In this document: positions 2,436 through 40,050 of the stretch, piece by piece
How positions within the stretch are numbered: position 1 is the first letter of the stretch
Layout: each line of letters begins with the position of its first letter
Source: a virus
Lineage: Duplodnaviria > Caudoviricetes
IMG/VR virus record: IMGVR_UViG_3300020037_003306
Location: 1 to 64,000 of that record
Direction: 5' to 3' (one strand)
Length of the DNA: 64,000 nucleotides
Notes under the pieces: model-generated
Told to the model about the DNA's origin: nothing
Seen by the model: the letters and a program-made list of their open reading frames with translations, nothing else
The model's database searches: none
Made by a program: the position numbers and the translations under genes

Positions 2436-5400
2436 ATGAGCTGTAAATTTAATGCACCTAACGGTAGTTTATCAAATCTTTTTGATAAAGTGTATAACGG
2501 TTGGGGTAAACCAAATGCTGTTAAGGTTTGGTCTGCTGTACAATCTAAAGAATTTAAAGATTGGTATGCTAAAGGAGCTACTGATGTAAATGGAGAACCT
2601 GTATTAACTGAACTTAATGAGTTCGTTAATGAAGCAGGAGAATCTCTTCATATTGCAGATGTTACTCAAGAATCTTTAGACCCTATTAGTCTTGAAGATT
2701 ATAGTTCTCAAATTGAAGAACTAACTAAAATGTTTGAAGACCAAGGTTTAGATATTACTGTAACTTTAGACAGTGATTCTGATAGCATTGGTAGTGTTAT
2801 TACAATTGATGGTAAAACAGAAGTAAAATTTAATCCTCGTAAGATTAAAACGGATAGTGTATTCCATGAGTTTGGACATATTCTTATTGATATGCTTGGA
2901 GTTGACCATCCTGTTGTTCAACGTGGTATTGAGCATTTAAAAGGTACTCCTCTTTGGAATCAAATTGAACAACTTTACCCTGAATTAAAAGGTGAGCGTT
3001 TAGCTAAAGAAATACTTACTACTGCTGTTGGTATGGAAGCTGCAACTTATCATCAAGAGAAGATTCGTCTTAGAGAACTACGTAATGGTTCTGTATTACA
3101 AAATATTAAAGGCTGGAAAACATGGGCAAAACATTTTTTCAATATAATTGCTGATAAGTTAGGTATCGGTCAAACTGCCGCTCAAAAACTTGCATATCAA
3201 TTAACAGGTAAGAATCTTCGTTACGCTTTAACTCATAAACCTGCTAGTTATGTTCAAAAACAAAAGGTTAAACCTAGTGTTGATAAGTTGAAAGCTGAAT
3301 CTGAGCGTCTTACCATTACTGACGATGAGCAGGGTTATATGATAGATAAAGACCCTGATAGAGTGATGAATCGTGTTACTACTGCTATTGATGATTTGAG
3401 AGGAGAATTTCAAAGAGATGAGGCTATAAAAAGAAGTATTAAATCTAAAAAAGGAATTTATGCTGATTTACATACCAAAGATGATATTGGTCGAAATTGG
3501 GCAGATAAAAGAGAAGAAGGTACAGCTCTGCATTTAATTAATGAACTTTATATTAAACAGCGCAATGAAGGTAAATCTCGTGAAGAAGCTATTAAATATG
3601 TAATGGCTAATTTACATAAACCTAAACCTGGTTTTGATAAAGAAGGTATTCGTTTTTATAGCGGTGCGCAAAAGAAATACGTTGAAACTTATATTGATGA
3701 CATTGCAGATTTTCTTGATAGTCTTATGGATAAGGGTTATAAACTTCATCCTGAGGTTAAAGTATTTGATGAAGAATTAGGTGTCGCTGGAACAATAGAT
3801 TTACTTATTGAAAAGCCTGATGGTACTTATATGATTTATGACTTCAAGACTAAAGAAGATGGTAAATTTGATTCATTTTATACTATTGATAAATATGAGA
3901 ATTTCCAAGGTATTGCTTCTGGACTTGCAAGAACTAAAGCTAATGAGTATGCTCTTCAACTTTCTACTTATAAACTAATTCTTGAACGGAAAGGTTTTAA
4001 AGTTACAGACATGGCTATTATTCCTTTTGAAGGTCAAATGGTTGAAGAAAATGGTGAATTTCATTATGTTAATGTACGTTTATTTTCAGATACTAATACT
4101 GTCAATAATAAAGACGGTGTTTTACCTGTAAAAGATTTGTCTGATGTTATGCTAGAATTTTATACTATTAAAGATGATAGTGAACAAATTCTTGAGAATG
4201 CGATGGAAGGTGAACAGACGTTGGATGAATTACTTGATTCTGCAAGTGAGCTTGGTAAAACAAAAGTATGGATTGAAGAGCTTGTAGTTAATATTAAAAA
4301 ATCCATTGCACGTTATAGAGCGACTGCAACTGTTACTGACGCCACTAAATATGAAAATGAGATTAAAAAACTTGTTGATAAATTAATGGTTGAAGATGAA
4401 ATGGGTGCAATTACTGCTTATACTGAATATATTACTAGAGGCCTTGCAGGTCTTCATAATAAATTCTTTGATAAATTCCCTTTGGTTAAAGATTCACAAG
4501 GTAAAGAGTATCGCACTCATGAAAAAGGATATGATAGTTATACTTGGCAAGATATTAAAAATCTTGAGCTAACTGACCCTGCTGCGTATATGGAGTTTCT
4601 TGCATTCTTAATTAATGCAGATGCGTTTTTAAATCAAGTTGTTGCTATTGAAAAATTATCTTATACAGATGCTCGTACAACCAATCTTGTTCTTAGAACT
4701 TTAAAATCTAACGAAGGTCATGTTTCTAATTTACGTAACAAGATTAAACGTCTTAATCGTGAATTAGATAAACGTTATGTTGAACTAAGTTCTAATCCTT
4801 TATATGGCGGTAGAGGTGTTCTTGAGAATACTGAATTGTTCTTTAGAGCGCAAGCTGATGAAACTTTCATGCAACACCATACTGACGCACTTGCAGATAC
4901 ACATAATAGTTATATGGCTAATGTTATGCGTTATTATGATTATAAAATGCGTTACATGAATGATGAAATTCTTAAAGTAACAAATGAATGGGAAGCTAAG
5001 ATTAAAGCATTTGAAGATGATGGTGGAGATATTAGTAGATTTATAGACCCTGATACAGCTCGTATAATTCCTAAGACTGACTATGAAAGATATTATCAAG
5101 CTCGTTCTGATATGTTTAAACGTGTTGATAAAACCTTTAATGGTGTTCGTGATTGGAAATGGAGGAATAGTGTTAATGCTTGGTTTAAAGCTAATACTAT
5201 TAAATTAACTCCAGAGCAAACTACAGCTCTTAATAAGAAGATGAAAGCTGAGCTTGGTGCTGAAGGTTTTAAAGAATGGAAAGCTCAACAAACTTATGCT
5301 GACGGTAAGAAAACAAAATTTACTTCTGCTTATTATCTACCTAATCCTAAAATTTACGCTAATAATACTTACAAAACTTATAATGCTAAAGAGCAAGAAT

Positions 5401-9106: not shown

Positions 9107-9941
9107 GAAATATTATTTCACGGTTAACAACAAAGAAACCACGTTTAGTAGTTTTAAAATCGAAATGTACTTCACTCTTACCGTAAGTAGGAGTTTCTCC
9201 AGTAACGACAGCTCGCCATTCAATATTGTGTTTTGTATAATCGGCAATAGAATCATGTACATTTAAGAAAGTATAATGAACATTATTCTTGATACAGTAA
9301 TGAGTAGGTTTGAAAGTACGTTGTTTGTATCTATCGTAAAGGATATTATTAACTTCAAGAATATCCTGTAAATTCCAATCATGGAAATTATTTCTATCAG
9401 CTAGAATTTTACAATTTAAACTCATAACGTGAATGTCGACAATTTTACCTTCTTCAATAACAGGTTGCACAAAAAATTCTTGATAAAATAAACTATAAAA
9501 ATCAGCTTCAATAGCATTCACAAGATTCTCTTTCAAACTATCATAAATAGTAGTAGCTTTAAATTCAACAAATACCTTACCAAAATCATAGACAGTATTC
9601 TCCGTAGTAAAATCTCCAGCGAGCATCTTAGCCATGAAATCTTTGATAACATGAACTTCCTCTGTTTTGAGTTTACTAAACATAGGAATAATTTGCTCCA
9701 TATTTTCAAGCCCTTGGATAAGTTCAACAGTTTCACAATCAGGTATATCTTTGCTATTAAAGATACGCCAAAACTCGCCTGTACGAAATTGCCAAAAGTT
9801 GATAAAGTTTCTAGCAGCAGCTTTAACTTGATGTTTAATAACACCTTTTTCAATTGTTAGCTCAAGATTCTCAACTGCAATTTGAATTGCAAGGAAGAAT
9901 GTAACAATGCAATTTATATCGTTTTCTTTTATTTTAGGCAT
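9072..9941 (-). CDS. Hypothetical protein (289 aa)
   Basis: Long ORF in the - strand operon. Confidence 0.8.
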   Translation of the reverse strand: MPKIKENDINCIVTFFLAIQIAVENLELTIEKGVIKHQVKAAARNFINFWQFRTGEFWRIFNSKDIPDCETVELIQGLENMEQIIPMFSKLKTEEVHVIKDFMAKMLAGDFTTENTVYDFGKVFVEFKATTIYDSLKENLVNAIEADFYSLFYQEFFVQPVIEEGKIVDIHVMSLNCKILADRNNFHDWNLQDILEVNNILYDRYKQRTFKPTHYCIKNNVHYTFLNVHDSIADYTKHNIEWRAVVTGETPTYGKSEVHFDFKTTKRGFFVVNREIIFLDQLNLIENDN

Positions 9942-9960
9942 AATAGATTTAGCGATTTAA

Positions 9961-9994
9961 AAAGGCGCACTACTAATAAAAGTAGTACGCCTTT
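9961..9994 (-). terminator. Intrinsic terminator-like hairpin after the MazG-like gene
   Basis: AAAGGCGCACTACT-AATAAA-AGTAGTACGCCTTT. The single C/A mismatch becomes a G.U pair on the - strand, and the A-run gives the U-tract. Confidence 0.7.
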
Positions 9995-9998
9995 AATG

Positions 9999-10781
9999 TT
10001 AAAAGAGAGTTTTTAGATTAACAGATTTAAACCCAAAGGGTTTAAGAATTTTACCATTAGCCCAACGACCTTTAGGGTCATAAAGACATTTCAAAACGAA
10101 CACTTCTTTGTCTTTATAAAGAATAGGTATAACTTCAACTTCCACTTCTTCATCTTCTTTATAACGAAGAGCATGAACAAGAGCGTCTTTATGCTGTATA
10201 AATATCTTATTCATATTGTTTCTATGAACAAGATTAAACGCAGCTTTAAATCGAGTATCAAGTCCAAAAGCAACAGCAGCCCCGTCAAGCACATAACGCA
10301 AATCACATAAAGCGTCAAGTACTTCAACAGGATTGGCAGAAGCTTCTTTCGATTCAAGCTTTTTAGCAAGTTCAAATTTAAGACCTGGAAAGATTCTATC
10401 AGCAATAAATTGACGTAAGTAATAATCATGAGCAAATCCAGCAGCCTCAATCAATTCAAATACTTCTTCAAGAACAAGTTTCAAACGAAGAAATACATCG
10501 TCTTTGTTAGTAAAGTCAGGTTCATTTTTCAATGTATAACCATTCATAATGACGCAAAATTTCTTAACATCTTCGAGAGTAGAATCGTTATTTAATCGGT
10601 CATTTTCAACAGTAATATCTAAATCAGAATCAGCGACAGCGTAAACTTCATCAAGCAATCTTCCATTCAATTGCATAATAAGTAAAGCATTTTCATCAGT
10701 AGCTTTTTCAATACCTTCTGGAGCAAAATATTCAGTAAGAACTTTACCAATTACTTCTGCTAATTTAACTTCTAAGTCCAT
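9999..10781 (-). CDS. MazG-like (DR2231/PRA-PH-type) nucleoside triphosphate pyrophosphohydrolase
   Basis: RLKLVLEEVFELIEA, EVLDALCDLRYV, AFNLVHRNNMNK and NGKILKP match the all-alpha NTP-PPase pattern. Confidence 0.85.
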   Translation of the reverse strand: MDLEVKLAEVIGKVLTEYFAPEGIEKATDENALLIMQLNGRLLDEVYAVADSDLDITVENDRLNNDSTLEDVKKFCVIMNGYTLKNEPDFTNKDDVFLRLKLVLEEVFELIEAAGFAHDYYLRQFIADRIFPGLKFELAKKLESKEASANPVEVLDALCDLRYVLDGAAVAFGLDTRFKAAFNLVHRNNMNKIFIQHKDALVHALRYKEDEEVEVEVIPILYKDKEVFVLKCLYDPKGRWANGKILKPFGFKSVNLKTLF

Positions 10782-33593: not shown

Positions 33594-34094
33594 TTAAAAA
33601 GAAGCTTGCATTATAATATTACTAAGTTTATGTAAACTGTAATCAGGAGGTTTAATGCGAAAATCATGCTTAGTCTTTTTGTGAAGTTTGCTATAAAGAG
33701 CGAGGATAAATTGAGTAGTAATGAAATCTTTAAGGAAATTTACTATGTTCAATTGATTAAGATTTACTCGATTAACTTCACAAAACTTGTCAAGATATTC
33801 TATAAATGGAACACGATAATTATCGTTATTTGTTTCAATGAAATGAACTACACTGATTTGAAAATGTAAATCTTTTAGTTCATCAATATCCATTATATAA
33901 TCGCTATTAAGACCGTTAATAAGAATAACATAATGTAAATGTTTGTTGTTATTAAGGAATTGACTAAGGCGTTTATTTTGTTTATAAGGATATGGACATG
34001 GATTGATGTAACGATTATCACGTCCAAATGGATTGATTTTAATATCGTTAGGATATTCTATTTTGTGATTATTATGCTCGGCTTTTAGATACAT
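33594..34094 (-). CDS. Hypothetical early protein (166 aa)
   Basis: ORF track; first gene downstream of the G-less leader. Confidence 0.75.
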   Translation of the reverse strand: MYLKAEHNNHKIEYPNDIKINPFGRDNRYINPCPYPYKQNKRLSQFLNNNKHLHYVILINGLNSDYIMDIDELKDLHFQISVVHFIETNNDNYRVPFIEYLDKFCEVNRVNLNQLNIVNFLKDFITTQFILALYSKLHKKTKHDFRIKPPDYSLHKLSNIIMQASF

Positions 34095-34291
34095 GGTTGT
34101 ATGTTTTGAATTGGTTTGTAAGATTGTGTTGTATGTTTAAGGTGTATAAGGTGTATATTGATGGGTAATTTTAGACCTTTAGGAGTAGTAGGAGAAATGG
34201 GAACAAGGTGGATAAAAGGGAAAAGGTTTATATTTATGGGGAAGTTGATGTGTAAGATTGTATATGAGGATTAGGAGGAAGTGGGTATAGT
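34095..34291 (-). other. Compositionally extreme tract (only 3 G in ~197 nt on the - strand)
   Basis: Counted directly: 3 C on the + strand across this interval. Confidence 0.9.
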
Positions 34292-34311
34292 CAACGCCAT
34301 ACACTCCCACC

Positions 34312-34629
34312 TCAAACACCATATTCTTTCACAATATCAACTTTCATAATATTAACATCTTCTTTCCTAATCAAACCTTTCAAATCAAGTATGGTAACTT
34401 CACACTCTATTGTAAAAGGTCTAAAATCGACAGCAAGCACTTCAATTTTATTCTTAACAAGCATCTTCAAAAGTTGTTCAACAGTCCAACCACTATTACC
34501 GTACCTTTTAACCATTTCTTTAATGAACCTTTCACCATCACGAACAGCAGAACCATAAGTTTTAAATAATTCAGCTCTAACAATAGTAACATAATCAGCT
34601 TGTGTAACATTACAATATAGATTTAGCAT
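34312..34629 (-). CDS. Hypothetical protein (105 aa)
   Basis: ORF track. Confidence 0.7.
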   Translation of the reverse strand: MLNLYCNVTQADYVTIVRAELFKTYGSAVRDGERFIKEMVKRYGNSGWTVEQLLKMLVKNKIEVLAVDFRPFTIECEVTILDLKGLIRKEDVNIMKVDIVKEYGV

Positions 34630-34981
34630 AACATTAGTTTTAGTTTTTGATTTAATATTGTTTCAAATTTCAAATTTCGATTGTTCTTTAGTATAATTGT
34701 CCTTTAGGCTTTGATTATACATAGTATTACCGTTATTAGCAAGGTATTACGTTACAAAGATAATAAATATTATGGACATTGCGAACATGACGACTGTTAA
34801 ATGTTTATAAAATGTTAGTAGTATTATATTTGTTGCTATCATTGCGAGCATGACGAACATTACAGACATTTATCAACATTATTATTACTATAATCATCAA
34901 CGGTTGTAGCTGCCTAGCATAATTGACAACAAGCGGAGCATTTATTGCTTGCAATATTTCAGTTGCTAGTTTGACCGTAGG

Positions 34982-35001
34982 TCAAACCTTAGCAGGTGGT
35001 T
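34982..35001 (-). promoter_or_regulatory. 20-bp motif, copy 1 (candidate phage early promoter)
   Basis: TCAAACCTTAGCAGGTGGTT on +; one mismatch to copy 3. Confidence 0.6.
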
Positions 35002-35021
35002 CAAGTTTATGGTATTTTGTA

Positions 35022-35075
35022 GCTTAATTACCAAAGGTATATTGCCTTTCAGCAATATACCTTTGGTAATTAAGC
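35022..35075. repeat. Perfect 24-bp inverted repeat with a 6-nt loop
   Basis: GCTTAATTACCAAAGGTATATTGC-CTTTCA-GCAATATACCTTTGGTAATTAAGC. Confidence 0.95.
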
Positions 35076-35263
35076 GGTATATTAAGAACTCGGTTAATGT
35101 AGCATTTATGGTTAAGATTAAAGGGGCAATTATGGTTATACGCAACGCCTGCAACAAACACACCAAGTTGTCCTATTGTATCCAATTGGGCAGTAATTTT
35201 ATTATGTAGTTGGGCAGACAATTACTTGGGTTTATCATCAAGAGTTTCAGTAAGCCGATTACC

Positions 35264-35295
35264 AAAAATCCCGCACCGCTCCTAAGAGCGGCACG
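35264..35295 (-). terminator. Intrinsic terminator after the 188-aa gene
   Basis: - strand CGUGCCGCUC-UUAG-GAGCGGUGCG (two G.U pairs) followed by GGAUUUUU. Confidence 0.75.
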
Positions 35296-35313
35296 AAATT
35301 CACGATATATATC

Positions 35314-35880
35314 TTACTCAAGGTCTTCATCTTCAGTTGTATCAACAACAACTTTTGGAGTTTCAACTTTTGGAGAAGGAGAGCCTTTTCTACGACCTTT
35401 TCTCGCTTCAGCAAGTTCACGTAAACCTTGCTCACGGTTTAAATCCGCAACATAAGCTTTAGCGTCTTCGCCAAGTACAAGTTCAAAAGATAAAGTATCA
35501 GTTCTCCAATGAGCGGTAGTATGATACATTAAACCGTCATCGCTAGAAGGGTCTTCAACTTGCTCTCCTGTTTTGAAATCAATAACAGGTGCGCCTTCTT
35601 CAACCCAAACTGCATTTACGCTCAATTTGCTATCATCAAATGAAGCACTAATTGCGTCCGCAAGAATATTGACATTGGTAGCACGCAAGTTTTGAGCAAA
35701 ATTGTTAAGATGGTCTTCATTGAATTGAAATACACCTTTAGGATTGCACTCGACACCTTCTTCGCATTTTACAGTAAGTTTGCCATTTTTATTGATACGA
35801 GTATCAATAGATTTGACAACAAAAGTAAAAGTAGTAGGTTTTTTAGCAACTGGTTTAGTTTTTTTAGCTGGATTAGCCAT
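35314..35880 (-). CDS. Hypothetical protein (188 aa) with a basic N-terminus and an acidic C-terminal tail
   Basis: MANPAKKTKPVAKK...DTTEDEDLE; flanked by its own motif copy and terminator. Confidence 0.85.
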   Translation of the reverse strand: MANPAKKTKPVAKKPTTFTFVVKSIDTRINKNGKLTVKCEEGVECNPKGVFQFNEDHLNNFAQNLRATNVNILADAISASFDDSKLSVNAVWVEEGAPVIDFKTGEQVEDPSSDDGLMYHTTAHWRTDTLSFELVLGEDAKAYVADLNREQGLRELAEARKGRRKGSPSPKVETPKVVVDTTEDEDLE

Positions 35881-35921
35881 AATGTTTGAAAATTTAAAAA
35901 TTTAAAAATATTGTTTATTAA

Positions 35922-35941
35922 TCAAAACTTCGCAGGTGGTT
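35922..35941 (-). promoter_or_regulatory. 20-bp motif, copy 2
   Basis: TCAAAACTTCGCAGGTGGTT on +; 41 nt upstream of the 35880 ATG. Confidence 0.65.
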
Positions 35942-35977
35942 AATTGTTTATGGTTAAAAGTATCAGTAAGGAAATAT

Positions 35978-36011
35978 AAACTCTTGCTGTCAATGAAGAC
36001 AACAAGAGTTT
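35978..36011 (-). terminator. Terminator-like hairpin
   Basis: AAACTCTTGCTGTC-AATGAA-GACAACAAGAGTTT; the mismatch is G.U on the - strand. Confidence 0.7.
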
Positions 36012-36015
36012 AATA

Positions 36016-36633
36016 TTAAAATGCAACAGACTCTTCATAGTTATGAAGTTGTACAGCAGTTGCTACATTTGCAGTAATATTTTCTGCGTGTACAATATCT
36101 TCAATATGTACAGTTTCAAGTTCTATTGTACGAGTTTTATAGTTTCGTACTTTAAAACTGACATTAATGCCATTATCAACGTAATTAACAGTACCTACAA
36201 CTATTTTATTTAAGTAGTGTAAAGATACATAATCAGCTTGTTCAAGTTGACCCCAAATTTTATCTCCGTCAATGAAAGTATCTTGTTCAGCAGGAAATGG
36301 AACATGATTATCCTTTTTTCGTAAGTCAATAGTATCCAAAGGAGTTTCAATTTTAACCCAACCATTGATAGTACTATACAAATCGCCAAGAGCTTGAGCA
36401 TTGTCTTGAATTGGGTCAATGATAGTTTCAACAAGTTTAACAAAATAATCAGTATTAATATTGTTAGATAGCGTAAAACTATTACCAAGTAATATCTGTT
36501 TAATACATTCATCAACACTGCGAATCCCTGTAACTTCTTTACTTTCAAATGGAGTAAGAAACAATTTGAGAAGTGCTTTTACAACAACATCAACACTCAA
36601 TTGATAAGTAAACGTTTTATTATAATTTTTCAT
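36016..36633 (-). CDS. Hypothetical protein (205 aa)
   Basis: ORF track. Confidence 0.8.
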   Translation of the reverse strand: MKNYNKTFTYQLSVDVVVKALLKLFLTPFESKEVTGIRSVDECIKQILLGNSFTLSNNINTDYFVKLVETIIDPIQDNAQALGDLYSTINGWVKIETPLDTIDLRKKDNHVPFPAEQDTFIDGDKIWGQLEQADYVSLHYLNKIVVGTVNYVDNGINVSFKVRNYKTRTIELETVHIEDIVHAENITANVATAVQLHNYEESVAF

Positions 36634-36720
36634 AACAACTAGATTTTATAAATGAATAATAAGATTAGTAAGAATATCCTCTCTAGTACATCTACGGTGT
36701 ACATTATCGAGAGGATTATA

Positions 36721-37143
36721 TTATTGAAGAATAGTAATATGTTTTGGAGCATATATAATATACTCCGTTTGAACAGTTGCTTCTTGATTATCAACAATAA
36801 TAGTTTTTACAGTTGGCGTATCAAGATGTACATTGCGAAATGCACTATCAAATGTAACAATTGTTGAAAGTGTAGAATTGCTCTCAAGTACAGAAATAAT
36901 TCTATTAGATTTATTATGAGTTACTGTAACAGTACACTCGATGATAATTCTATTAGATTTAGTTTCAACAACTTCAACTCTTCCTTTCAATGAATGAGAA
37001 AGAGTTTCAACATTGTCAAGATTATAAGTTTTGGCGAATGTAGTTGTAGATTGAGCTTTCAAAAACATAGGTATCGAAGTAAACACCATTACAATTATCA
37101 TAATGATAATCAATTTTAAATTAGAAGGTTTTGTAACTAGCAT
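36721..37143 (-). CDS. Putative exported protein with a signal peptide (probable start 37143)
   Basis: MLVTKPSNLKLIIIMIIVMVFTSIPMFLKAQ- has a Sec-type signal ending KA|Q, followed by a beta-rich mature part. Confidence 0.65.
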   Translation of the reverse strand: MLVTKPSNLKLIIIMIIVMVFTSIPMFLKAQSTTTFAKTYNLDNVETLSHSLKGRVEVVETKSNRIIIECTVTVTHNKSNRIISVLESNSTLSTIVTFDSAFRNVHLDTPTVKTIIVDNQEATVQTEYIIYAPKHITILQ

Positions 37144-37177
37144 GATTATAAGTATTAAGAATAAGAGAATTTGTATA

Positions 37178-37197
37178 TCAAAACTTAGCAGGTGGTT
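37178..37197 (-). promoter_or_regulatory. 20-bp motif, copy 3
   Basis: TCAAAACTTAGCAGGTGGTT on +; 34 nt upstream of the 37143 ATG. Confidence 0.65.
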
Positions 37198-37399
37198 AAT
37201 GATTGTGTTCATTGTGGAATGTAATGGAACAATGAATACAATCAATATGTTTATGGTCTTCGTTCCTATTGAGTCCTACATCAACTGTATAATATAGATT
37301 GTCATTTCGATTATGTGTAGTTCTATATCCTAGTTTGTCGTTTCAATTCTATATAATTGTACTGTTATGTTTGGATATGTTATGCACATTAAGCGTATA

Positions 37400-37590
37400 A
37401 CTATCAAGCAGCACATCACTCCTCAAAGTAATACCATTATCTTTATGAAAGTTTAAAAGTTTATAAGCTTGAGCAATGGAAAATAATTATTTTTAATTAT
37501 TTTCTTGCGAAAGATTATATACTTTTAAACTTTCATAAAGATACCCGGGGTATTCAATTTACTTTGAGGAGGGAGGGGGTGATTGATAGT
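37400..37590. repeat. Long imperfect inverted repeat (~190 nt hairpin) at the transcriptional divergence
   Basis: Paired arms 37438-37460/37521-37543 (23 bp perfect), 37419-37430/37560-37571 and 37400-37407/37583-37590; central GAAAATAATTA-TTTT-TAATTATTTTC. Confidence 0.9.
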
Positions 37591-37788
37591 ATCACACCCA
37601 CGTACCCACACTTTCTACAACTTCAACATCTTCACATTTACACACGCTAACAACTCCTATCTTATACAAATACACATTCATACCTTCTACTTCTCAATCA
37701 TTTCCACCTTCACCATCATATACACCTTAACCTTCACAACCTTCCTCAACACCTTCAACATACCTCAAATTCCATACCTTATATATAT
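37591..37788 (+). other. Compositionally extreme tract (only 2 G in ~198 nt on the + strand)
   Basis: Counted directly. Confidence 0.9.
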
Positions 37789-37929
37789 GGTATAGCGTGG
37801 CGGAATTGCCTACCCAGTTAAACGCTATCACATTCAAATCATTCAAACAACCAAACATACGCTAAACGCTACGATACAGCCAATGCCCATTTAAACAACA
37901 CATTTAAACCTTAATAGTAAACTTAATCC

Positions 37930-38057
37930 TAACTTTGAGTATAAAGTATAGAAACCAACAAATAAGACTTATTTAAAGAAAATTACAAGCCAATGAAACT
38001 ATTTTATAAAATAAACACTTATAAATTTGTAAGTGTAGTTAAGATGTTATATACTTG
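37930..38057 (+). promoter_or_regulatory. Candidate host-type promoters for the rightward block
   Basis: TAACTTTG (37930-37937) and TAAATTTG (38022-38029) match TAnnTTTG; TTG-N20-TATACTTG ends at 38057. Confidence 0.45.
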
Positions 38058-38091
38058 TATAGTAATTGAACAACAACTAAAACAATTCAAA

Positions 38092-38508
38092 ATGACTATT
38101 GAAGACAAAGCTGCTCTTGAAGTTGAACTTCTTAAAGCTACACTTAGTAATACAATTATATCTTGGAATGAGAAATGCGCTAAGTTATCTTATGTTGCTA
38201 GATTTGGATATGCTATTGATTTTGAAGATAGTGCTTCTCGTAAATCAGATGATGCTCCTGGAATTATCACTGGTATAATTGATGTTACTTCTTTCGTACA
38301 AACTGCGGTACTAACTATATTTAGTCAAGGCGTTGGTTCTCAAAAACAAAAAGTTCTATTTAGTTATCGTCATAGTTTTAGTCCTTCTGATGTTATGGAA
38401 GGTTTTACAGATTACGATTTCAATAAAGCTATACTTCTTCTTTTGAAAGAAGTTTTCATTGAAGCATTTGGAACATTTCTTATCACGATTGATAAACTTG
38501 TTAAATAG
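38092..38508 (+). CDS. Hypothetical protein (probable start MTIEDK at 38092)
   Basis: A-rich leader CAACTAAAACAATTCAAA before this ATG. Confidence 0.75.
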   Translation: MTIEDKAALEVELLKATLSNTIISWNEKCAKLSYVARFGYAIDFEDSASRKSDDAPGIITGIIDVTSFVQTAVLTIFSQGVGSQKQKVLFSYRHSFSPSDVMEGFTDYDFNKAILLLLKEVFIEAFGTFLITIDKLVK

Positions 38509-38730
38509 ATGCTTATAGATAATACAATTAAAACGGTTCTTGAAAAGATTCAATCTCAAGTTAAGAAAGAATTTGATGTTGACCTTACACAAGAAGAATT
38601 ACTTGAAATAGTGGATAGCCAATTTAAAGTTATCCCTGATGCAATTGAAAATAAAGATACAGTTAAACTTGATAAACTTGGTAAGTTCCTCATTAAAGAA
38701 ATGAGAACTAAAGTTTTAAAAGATAAATAA
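38509..38730 (+). CDS. HU/IHF-like DNA-binding protein
   Basis: IVDSQFKVIPDAIENKDTVKLDKLGKFLIK fits the HU/IHF helix-strand pattern, which is common in crAss-like phages. Confidence 0.7.
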   Translation: MLIDNTIKTVLEKIQSQVKKEFDVDLTQEELLEIVDSQFKVIPDAIENKDTVKLDKLGKFLIKEMRTKVLKDK

Positions 38731-39348: not shown

Positions 39349-40050
39349 ATGGAACAACAAACCACTAATGAATATTCTGAGATTTTAAAAGTTATTAACA
39401 TTGTTAATGGGCTTGCTCAATTCGATAGAAAAGAACTTGAAGCTTATCCAGAGTTCAATAAAATACTTTCTCGTGTACATCCTTCTAAAGGAGATGCTGA
39501 TGGTAGAAAGAAATACCTAAATAATAAAGAACTTCTTTATATTAAATTCATGTCTAATTTTGCTGGACAACATCGTGGATTTCACGGTGATGCAAAACAT
39601 GAGAAAGCTAAAATGGATGCACAGCTTCCTGATGAATGGAAACCTGATGACCATGTTCAAGCTGCAATTGCCAAGGCGATTGAAATACAAATCTATTATA
39701 CTCCTACCGTCCGTCTTCTTAATGCAATTGAAAAAGGTATGATGCTTTCTGCGGAAGCTGCCGAGAGTCAACTTGACCAAGTATATACTGCAATTAAAAC
39801 AGGTAAGCGATTAACTGATGAATTGAAAGATACTAAAGATTTAAGTGAAGCTCAAAAAACTATTGATGCCATGTTGAACGTAAGCGATTTGTTACAGGCG
39901 AGGGTTAATGGTTTCATGAAGAGTGCTGGTGAAGTTCCTAAAGTTCTTAAACAATTGAAAGAACTTCAAAGTCAAGTTATTCAAGAACAAAATGGCGAAC
40001 GTTCTTTACGTGGTGGTCATAAAAAAGGTAATCGTGAAGACCCAAGATAA
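39349..40050 (+). CDS. Conserved crAss-like late protein (possible terminase small subunit)
   Basis: KELLYIKFM..KHEKAKMDAQLPDEWKPD..LRGG pattern, helical, upstream of the packaging genes. The TerS role is inference. Confidence 0.55.
   Translation: MEQQTTNEYSEILKVINIVNGLAQFDRKELEAYPEFNKILSRVHPSKGDADGRKKYLNNKELLYIKFMSNFAGQHRGFHGDAKHEKAKMDAQLPDEWKPDDHVQAAIAKAIEIQIYYTPTVRLLNAIEKGMMLSAEAAESQLDQVYTAIKTGKRLTDELKDTKDLSEAQKTIDAMLNVSDLLQARVNGFMKSAGEVPKVLKQLKELQSQVIQEQNGERSLRGGHKKGNREDPR

Follow-up and report, generated by a model that had tools for sequence, protein, structure and literature searches.

The defining substrate of the termination factor Rho is naked, C-rich RNA that is free of ribosomes, and Rho utilisation (rut) sites are defined by composition rather than by sequence. 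In phages lambda and T4, Rho-dependent barriers act between the early gene cluster and the later genes. The omega leader of tobamoviruses is a G-less, CAA-rich 5′ untranslated region of 68 nt that enhances translation. In the human gut and in many environments, few viruses are more abundant than crAss-like phages, whose timing of early, replication and late expression and whose start of replication are largely uncharted. In the one transcription study of such a phage, Cellulophaga phage phi14:2, early promoters showed no common motif, and two non-coding RNAs, abundant early on and derived from the g004–g006 intergenic regions, were left without an explanation (bioRxiv 10.1101/2020.03.07.982082). 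Here we describe two G-free tracts in IMG/VR virus record IMGVR_UViG_3300020037_003306, a single contig of 78,689 bp that is rated complete and has an average GC of 32%. Its terminase, portal and major head protein match crAss PHROG families, identifying a divergent crAss-like phage, and the terminase is about 29% identical to those of gut Crassvirales. Positions 1 to 64,000 of the record form the window, the 64,000-nt stretch in which a first-pass annotation had noticed the tracts. They are real and unique in the genome, G-free on the sense strand and predicted to be unstructured, and their composition is conserved and selected. Full-text searches on G-less phage tracts, crAss non-coding regions and crAss transcription start sites yielded no description of such an element, which apparently is a control point, not described before, at the boundaries of an early gene island.

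Tract 1 (34080..34296), G-free and C-rich on the minus strand, extends as far as the ATG of a 166-aa gene, while tract 2 (37580..37796) is G-free and C-rich on the plus strand and heads the rightward structural array (~48 kb). The base counts first given for them were exact. The plus strand of 34095–34291 holds A59, G65, T70 and 3 C (65 C against 3 G on the sense strand, 197 nt), and that of 37591–37788 holds A65, C71, T60 and 2 G (198 nt), with zero G across 37647–37788. By comparison, 197-nt segments have a median of 29 C and 33 G (1st percentile, 16 and 18). Segments with five or fewer C or five or fewer G occurred, in the whole 78,689-bp genome, solely at 34080–34296 (C) and 37580–37796 (G). 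Only four runs of at least 60 nt lack a base altogether: 34093–34175 and 34205–34291 (no C), and 34297–34388 and 37647–37788 (no G). Tract 2 is 36% C and 1% G, and the GC of the tracts is 35–37%.

The sense RNA of the tracts was predicted to be almost without structure, with a minimum free energy (MFE) of 0.0 kcal/mol for tract 2 and −3.1 kcal/mol for tract 1, against −34.5 ± 8.3 kcal/mol (weakest −15.9) for 200 random 198-nt segments of the genome. Start codons are equally scarce, tract 2 having no ATG, GTG or TTG and tract 1 no ATG or GTG and a single TTG. Published criteria for rut sites ask for a non-template-strand bubble of C over G that spans at least about 80 nt, for scant structure, and for YC dimers 9–13 nt apart in chains of at least four (PMC6144790). 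At the level of sequence both tracts have such a bubble and hardly any structure, together with 38–40 YC dimers each (38 in tract 2) and longest chains of 8 (tract 2) and 4 (tract 1). Our leading interpretation, held tentatively and at a little under even confidence, is that the tracts are transcribed leaders lacking structure and start codons, which would provide a Rho-type checkpoint and, in a Bacteroidota host that does without Shine–Dalgarno (SD) sequences, a place for ribosomes to land.

Gene order places both tracts ahead of large operons. Genes run leftward from 37143 to 7985, first those of the island and then helicases, DNA polymerase and ligase. Rightward genes start at 37993 and comprise those for an HU-like protein, a nuclease, terminase, portal, head and tail proteins and a giant polymerase. 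The strand-divergence point is 37144–37993. The annotation had put both tracts there, which holds for tract 2, inside the divergent gap, but not for tract 1, which lies 3 kb into the leftward array between co-directional 105-aa and 166-aa genes. Its claim that each tract is G-free on the strand reading outward was borne out by composition and by the gene map. The 166-aa gene (33594..34094, minus strand) is the first after tract 1 and stands at the head of the ~26-kb leftward replication array; beyond tract 2, whose end is separated from the next ATG by 205 nt, the first rightward gene encodes 171 aa (37993..38508, plus strand) and is directly followed by the HU/IHF-like gene (38509–38730, plus strand). 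Between the tracts lies an island of four genes that also contains 680 nt of non-coding sequence and the only three copies of a 20-nt motif in the genome. These copies, a hairpin with 24-bp arms and a ~190-nt hairpin, all listed earlier for this interval, are real.

A 13-nt G-rich box, TTTGAGGWGGGAG, precedes each tract in the G-free orientation, just before the first G-free base. It occurs only twice in the genome (allowing at most one mismatch) and is among the genome's most G-dense 20-mers. Box 1 (TTTGAGGTGGGAG, 34304..34316, minus strand) contains the stop codon of the 105-aa gene and ranks among the most G-dense minus-strand 20-mers. Box 2 (TTTGAGGAGGGAG, 37563..37575, plus strand) runs on into five G, forming the most G-dense plus-strand 20-mer of the genome. 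Each box is able to pair with the opening bases of its tract, and box 2 is also part of the 3′ arm of the ~190-nt nested hairpin, which is built of inverted repeats at the strand switch (37400..37590). The fold of 37390–37860, comprising this hairpin and tract 2, has an MFE of −105.9 kcal/mol (z = −10.5). Short repeats flank the strand-switch hairpin at 37260–37350, and likewise its equivalents in relatives. Right after tract 2, a small hairpin (37793..37835, plus strand) with a 7-bp stem and a 23-nt loop was read from the sequence. Prediction and reading of the sequence gave no convincing sigma-70 or Bacteroidetes promoter, nor an intrinsic terminator, at the boxes; no boxA-like word was conserved across units. 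Exact-pattern scans of IMG/VR with the box and with the 20-nt motif returned only chance matches to unrelated phages.

Beyond what had been annotated, tract 1 is one half of a bipartite element. A 92-nt run of the plus strand without G (34297–34388) abuts it with opposite polarity, so that in the sense RNA a C-free upstream half (34297..34411, minus strand; G-free on the plus strand) precedes the G-free one and overlaps the last ~25–30 codons of the 105-aa gene. Along either strand of the element, in the 5′-to-3′ direction, a G-rich stretch without C gives way to a C-rich stretch without G, a dyad of composition and not of sequence. A long hairpin between the two halves was considered and rejected, as they are not true inverted repeats (P = 0.07–0.58); the fold of the joined pair is at best marginally more stable than that of shuffles made within each half (z = +1.1 to −3.0).

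The near-equal lengths of the tracts and a shared 12-mer, both noted earlier, do not show that the two are homologous copies: local alignment found tracts 1 and 2 no more alike than composition-matched shuffles (P = 0.12), shared k-mers were not above such shuffles either, and the tracts have only the G-rich box in common. The 12-mer is present in both, but it is not significant for three-letter sequences and hence is no evidence of duplication. Across lineages, too, the tracts had no k-mer or motif in common beyond chance, and by-eye resemblances to the 16S rRNA 3′ tail, rrn boxA and T7 end repeats were therefore dropped. A search of known RNA families gave just sub-threshold microRNA-hairpin noise. 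A perfect 13-nt inverted repeat (34168–34180 and 34415–34427) has one arm in tract 1 and the other inside the 105-aa gene. The tract 1 arm holds two of the tract's three C (sense-strand G), and the rare exceptions to base exclusion may be pairing partners.

We searched for comparable tracts in relatives, labelling this genome G000, the relatives from a terminase alignment G001–G003, and IMG/VR loci L0xx. Low-GC thresholds catch background segments, so we counted only tracts that combined depletion with enrichment of the complement or that were syntenic. The terminase-alignment search yielded three syntenic relatives with ~50% terminase identity, one of them a complete genome of 80.5 kb; a terminase scan of the metagenome collection gave two short contigs only, and a terminase-alignment scan of the genome collection had no hits. 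Ahead of the HU-like gene, where tract 2 lies in G000, all of G001–G003 share one layout: a hairpin that leads into a G-run, then a C-poor stretch, followed by a G-poor tract and a further hairpin. In one of the three the tract measures 210–233 nt with 6–9 G and is unique in its contig. Read in late-gene orientation, the divergent regions concerned (L043 at about 9500–10250, L048/L049 and L051) have short palindromic repeats to the left of the G-run and, in all three, a hairpin with an 8-bp GC-rich stem ~200–300 nt upstream of the first late gene. The G-poor tract ends in a 6-bp hairpin followed by an A-run (read as a T-run on the opposite strand), possibly a weak terminator of leftward transcription.

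The hairpin that leads into a G-run ahead of the tract, present in G000 as in G001–G003, bears on the proposal that hairpin, G-run and tract together form an entry site or promoter for a virion-packaged RNA polymerase, with the asymmetric tract keeping the melted template open. The polymerase gp66 of phi14:2 transcribes single-stranded or denatured but not double-stranded DNA, from early promoters without a consensus (bioRxiv 10.1101/2020.03.07.982082), and composition conserved without sequence would fit a promoter that has no motif. However, phi14:2 itself lacks such tracts and the form of the hairpin is not conserved, and we regard this proposal as quite improbable.

An alignment of a conserved 233-aa protein recovered 21 IMG/VR loci, three of them informative; the protein had no match in GenBank phages. 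The protein at 39349–40050 (plus strand), of a 220–250-aa family with an invariant GDADGRKK, is encoded a few genes into the rightward array and serves as a clade marker, with relatives at L043:8105–8767, L048:18510–19172 and L051:1996–2655. L059, an 83-kb contig, has a full mirror-image pair of tracts around a small leftward island. Its leftward G-free tract (211 nt) lies ahead of a leftward gene's ATG, the last ~35 nt being without G, and is adjoined by a segment of opposite polarity. Its island consists of two leftward genes and a repeat-bearing non-coding stretch, and its rightward tract (266 nt, 102 C, 6 G) is preceded by a G-rich box. L061 (and L069) has a back-to-back pair, four small leftward island genes and a 243-nt rightward tract. 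L066 has the back-to-back pair only, with a leftward member that ends at the start codon.

Adjoining halves of opposite polarity are thus present in L059, L061 and L066, as well as in gut crAss phages, and positional equivalents of tract 2 are found in G003/L055, L059, L061 and L069. Tract lengths in the relatives cluster at 190–270 nt. In 8 of 8 units the next gene has the G-free strand as its sense strand, and two of these units lie inside co-directional arrays, where transcription would have to run in that direction if the array forms a single operon. Leftward tracts reach the start codon in G000 and L066 and come within ~40 nt of it in L059, the remainder being G-less. Rightward tracts (tract 2 and its equivalents) stop 125–300 nt before the next gene. 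In the relatives of lowest GC the conserved property is depletion of G, with C at just 19–24%.

The element is also found in known crAss-like phages, strong versions being present in four of the five GenBank Crassvirales genomes scanned. In crAssphage (BK010471) it fills a 660-nt gap between gp04 and gp05 (1714–2373) in the early operon, downstream of the annotated genes for RepL and for the single-stranded DNA-binding protein (SSB; gp02). The gap has a C-free, G-rich half of 230 nt (G 83, C 8), then a C-rich, G-poor half that reaches the ATG of gp05. Phage cr127 has 307 nt free of C and then 512 nt free of G ahead of a rightward gene. Both cr11 and the isolate OQ198719, a phage of Bacteroides cellulosilyticus with the element at 81965–82658, have the same arrangement in leftward early arrays. 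The strictly G-free halves in these other phages have an MFE of −0.004 to −0.022 kcal/mol/nt, and the less strict crAssphage half −0.119. A G-rich heptamer is repeated in the C-free half of crAssphage. At the junction of the halves, the same 12-nt word, ACCGCCTATCAC, occurs in cr11 (MT774383 ~8626) and in the Rudgehvirus isolate (OQ198719 ~82405), and tract 2 opens with a similar TATCAC word. The 12-nt word may mark a functional centre, or it may merely reflect close kinship of two gut phages.

Sequence variation in crAssphage showed selection on this composition. Among seven strains, the C-free half varies at 22% of sites and the G-poor half at 37%, with many indels. Minority alleles were C in 2 of 51 cases in the C-free half and G in 14 of 183 in the G-poor half, where the corresponding shares in the neighbouring gene are 18–19%. 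New C and new G alleles are thus excluded (P = 0.003 and P = 1e-5, respectively), and every strain has 7–9 C in the 217–229 nt of its C-free half. Fast variation of sites with exclusion of C and G alleles means that composition is kept while the sequence drifts: the composition of the crAssphage element is under purifying selection. Across the clade the sequences are not alignable, and on comparison it is composition, not sequence, that is conserved. Over BK010471 1400–2700, gp04 and the gp04–gp05 gap vary at 22–37% of sites with indels of up to 50 nt, compared with 6% in gp05–gp06, and use of the gp04–gp05 region as a strain-typing locus is possible.

The bipartite element lies 2–3 kb inside the early operon in eight independent assemblies, isolate genomes included, which rules out an assembly artefact and argues against genome termini. 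A further reading takes the tracts for genome-end or packaging signals, or for a coding or assembly artefact. They do lie near the divergence point, and the ends of T7 carry strand-biased short repeats, C-rich arrays beside the terminal repeat. One frame of tract 2 is open over 67 of 68 codons, with a TTG right after the box. Composition with a period of three is found in several G-free tracts (P = 5e-4 to 8e-13): at 37591–37796, in L059, and at BK010471 1981–2373, MT774383 8351–8626 and MT774393 3191–3682. However, open frames in the tracts are no longer than in shuffles (P = 0.08–0.8), the C-free strand is rich in stops, translations are of low complexity and a G-free frame can encode just 11 kinds of amino acid, and protein coding was accordingly rejected. 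End repeats are absent from the contig, whose break falls inside the giant polymerase gene that wraps round its ends, and not at the tracts. Packaging also varies among crAss phages, with short terminal repeats in crAss001 and a headful pac-type mode in crAss002 (PMC8042965). We consider this set of explanations very improbable.

On the RNA-level reading, G would be excluded because it lets RNA fold through G–C and G–U pairs, sits in AUG, GUG and UUG, and builds SD-like words. The outcome would be 200 nt of naked, C-rich and ribosome-free RNA, that is, a substrate for Rho, and this is what leads us to propose a checkpoint. Tract 1 would be the untranslated head of the ~26-kb leftward replication unit and tract 2 that of the ~48-kb rightward structural unit, while the genes between them would form an early island with its own three promoters. 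By default, transcription into the big operons would be aborted at the tracts, until termination is blocked, by a factor that the island encodes or by an altered state of the host, and read-through follows. The G-rich box and the hairpin upstream could be a promoter or the recognition site of that factor. The leader of tract 1 would double as a landing site for SD-independent ribosomes, because the first AUG past this tract starts the next gene. Three parts of this proposal are inferred: transcription of the leaders, action of Rho or a similar loader on them, and control through the box. Among the four functions offered in the first-pass annotation, Rho-gated or unstructured leaders fit best, given that the G-free strand is the sense strand, that three leftward tracts end at or close to start codons and that predicted structure is near zero. 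The annotation's general view of a purpose-built, undescribed, outward-facing control module gained strength from the tracts at syntenic places in relatives and from the selection on composition; the absence of such tracts, or an assembly artefact, had been named as what would speak against it.

Several points weigh against a Rho-type leader. Transcription start sites, Rho dependence and the host itself are all deduced indirectly. Neither rut nor leader explains the upstream C-free, G-rich half, which in crAssphage is selected where it is non-coding, and by composition alone this half would pair with the G-free half and mask it. As tract 2 stops 205 nt short of an ATG, the argument from ribosome landing is limited to the leftward units. 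The relatives of lowest GC, being depleted in G rather than enriched in C, are less ideal for Rho. The period of three in tract 2 and several other tracts is left without explanation, and phi14:2 and crAss001 have no strong tract. If the virion RNA polymerase transcribes the early genes, its sensitivity to Rho is in question. Finally, Rho of Bacteroidota has a large N-terminal insertion, and its RNA specificity may differ (PMC6144790).

Translation initiation in this phage bears on both the host and the role of the leaders. Among the 71 long genes on the expected strands in the window, none had an SD-like 4-mer at −20 to −4 (background 11%). Initiation regions are depleted in G and enriched in A at −15 to −11 (65% at −13), at −8, at −6 to −5 and at −3. 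The same pattern is described for Bacteroidetes and Flavobacterium (PMC6847099). Such SD-less, A-rich initiation regions make a Bacteroidota host most likely, and the tracts look like an extreme extension of the host's normal initiation-region composition. They might then be long 5′ untranslated regions and nothing else, a prokaryotic counterpart to omega, recruiting SD-blind ribosomes or escaping endoribonucleases that prefer G, with no part in termination. The SD-free, G-poor and A-rich initiation regions across the genome suit this idea, as do leftward tracts that end at or near start codons, contain no ATG or GTG and have no structure. However, 200–500 nt is far beyond what a ribosome needs, tract 2 and its equivalents end well before the next gene, and neither the C-free upstream half nor the G-rich box is explained. 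We therefore judge a pure leader function unlikely. Like the virion-polymerase, genome-end, coding and artefact readings, it has little or no positive support; genome ends and entry of the virion polymerase, two further functions suggested at the outset, have none.

Replication origin or helicase loading, the remaining function suggested, stays live through the dyad symmetry of composition and the position of tract 2 at the cumulative GC-skew minimum. Here the tracts would act as DNA, as an element defined by composition: an origin, a zone for loading helicase or SSB, or a bidirectional boundary at the edge of the island that would halt machinery arriving from either side. Melted strands would form no G–C hairpins, a 5′-to-3′ hexameric helicase would track the G-free strand outward on both sides, and transcription through the G-rich half could leave an RNA–DNA hybrid as a primer. 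The back-to-back dyad without complementarity is found in G000, L059, L061, L066, crAssphage, cr127, cr11 and the Rudgehvirus isolate, although tract 2 of G000 has no long C-free partner. In favour of a DNA-level role, the C-free half is selected where it is non-coding, and it also limits codon choice of the preceding gene in G000 and L059. In both G000 (38164) and G001 (9618), the detrended cumulative GC skew reaches its minimum next to tract 2 or its equivalent, at the divergence point, but such minima in phages with divergent operons also follow the direction of transcription. Moreover, each strand switches from G-rich to C-rich, the reverse of the skew at known origins, in which the leading strand is G-rich. 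The element follows the RepL and SSB genes in crAssphage and an SSB-like gene in G000, and direct repeats and large hairpins surround tract 2. Against this, no iteron family is conserved within the tracts, which at a GC above the genome average are not AT-rich unwinding elements, and no island protein was matched to a replication initiator. Since the strand that the helicase would track 5′ to 3′ is also the outward sense strand, orientation does not separate RNA-level from DNA-level readings. Overall we regard a DNA-level element as the main rival, possible but doubtful. DNA modification as a cause of base exclusion was also considered and set aside, a Pfam search of the replication module having shown no DNA-modification genes.

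The 20-nt motif of the island has three copies, none elsewhere in the genome, each positioned like the promoter of a leftward unit. Copy 1 (37178..37197, minus strand) lies 34 nt upstream of the first leftward gene, a 140-aa gene (36721..37143, minus strand) whose product has a hydrophobic N-terminus. A 205-aa gene follows (36016..36633, minus strand), and then a terminator-like hairpin (36012–35977). Copy 2 (35922..35941, minus strand) is a candidate island promoter 42 nt upstream of the SSB-like gene, and to the eye its 3′ end is similar to the Bacteroidetes −7 promoter element. Copy 3 (34982–35001, minus strand) is inside the non-coding stretch of ~680 nt (34630..35313, minus strand), as is the perfect hairpin with 24-bp arms (35022–35075). 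This stretch also holds two direct repeats of ~20 nt and is similar to the repeat-bearing gap at 4333–4572 of L059; it may encode a small RNA comparable to the early non-coding RNAs of phi14:2. The 105-aa gene (34312..34629, minus strand), last of the island, has no family match.

The 188-aa island protein (35314..35880, minus strand) is an SSB candidate. It has an acidic C-terminal tail and no Pfam or PHROG match, and its predicted structure (Atlas model) is nearest to viral Ssb clusters with a template-modelling (TM) score of 0.48–0.49, which is a lead only. A relative that is 87% identical is encoded on a 3.4-kb contig. From the model and the gene order, in which the annotated SSB of crAssphage is likewise upstream of the equivalent element, the protein is probably a crAss-type SSB. 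No relatives were found for the small proteins flanking the tracts, a DNA search against GenBank phages gave no similarity, and no tRNAs were found.

The element can be recognised from sequence alone, both in a divergent environmental clade and in the prototype crAssphage, and it combines fast evolution with a near-absolute base exclusion that is selected. For a regulatory or origin element, conservation throughout a viral order by composition alone may be without precedent. For annotation it offers a landmark of the early/late boundary, and culturable carriers such as the Bacteroides cellulosilyticus phage OQ198719 offer an experimental handle. A Rho-type role, if true, would show how phages of SD-free hosts build leaders and checkpoints. 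If the doubtful alternative of a composition dyad acting as origin or insulator were true instead, C-free then G-free sequence over 100–500 nt would define a class of such elements without a sequence motif, one that has so far escaped notice in the most abundant phage of the human gut.

Comparison with described systems shows partial likeness in each case. Like the promoters of the N4 virion RNA polymerase, the tracts belong to a phage with an injected RNA polymerase and with hairpins heading transcription units near one control region. N4 hairpins, however, are small and conserved (5–7-bp stem, 3-nt loop), whereas those of the phage element vary in size between 6 bp and 190 nt without conservation, and what is conserved is a composition over 200 nt. 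Transcription-primed or R-loop origins and GC-skew elements (ColE1 RNA II, T4 oriF/oriG and mitochondrial CSB) similarly show extreme local GC skew by a promoter-like region and replication genes, and the G-rich half of the phage element, if transcribed, would give a stable RNA–DNA hybrid. In those systems, G-rich RNA downstream of the start defines the primer, whereas the downstream tract of the phage is G-free and would form the weakest hybrids. The gaps that give rise to the non-coding RNAs of phi14:2 are long, non-coding, transcribed in the sense direction and a few genes into the early operon, the same relative position as tract 1 and crAssphage 1714–2373, but they show no exclusion of G or C.

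If transcribed, tract 1 and its leftward counterparts in L059 and L066 would resemble the omega leader as viral leaders without G or structure at or close to a start codon. Omega is eukaryotic, monopartite and 68 nt long, whereas the phage tracts are three to seven times longer, have a G-rich partner and in some cases do not abut a gene. Known rut sites are ~80 nt and merely G-poor, in contrast to phage tracts of 190–500 nt with near-total exclusion of G and a C-free partner. For the lambda nut sites, no equivalents of boxA or boxB could be shown in the phage element, and Rho of Bacteroidota is divergent. Nevertheless, rut sites and Rho-dependent attenuators such as lambda tR1, which with nutR separates immediate-early from delayed-early genes, have in common with the tracts a C-rich, G-poor sense RNA that is defined by composition and that in the tracts is predicted to be unstructured and would be untranslated. 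The tracts, too, stand between an early cluster and later genes, on both arms of a divergent control region, with a conserved box and a hairpin ahead of them as nut is ahead of tR1.

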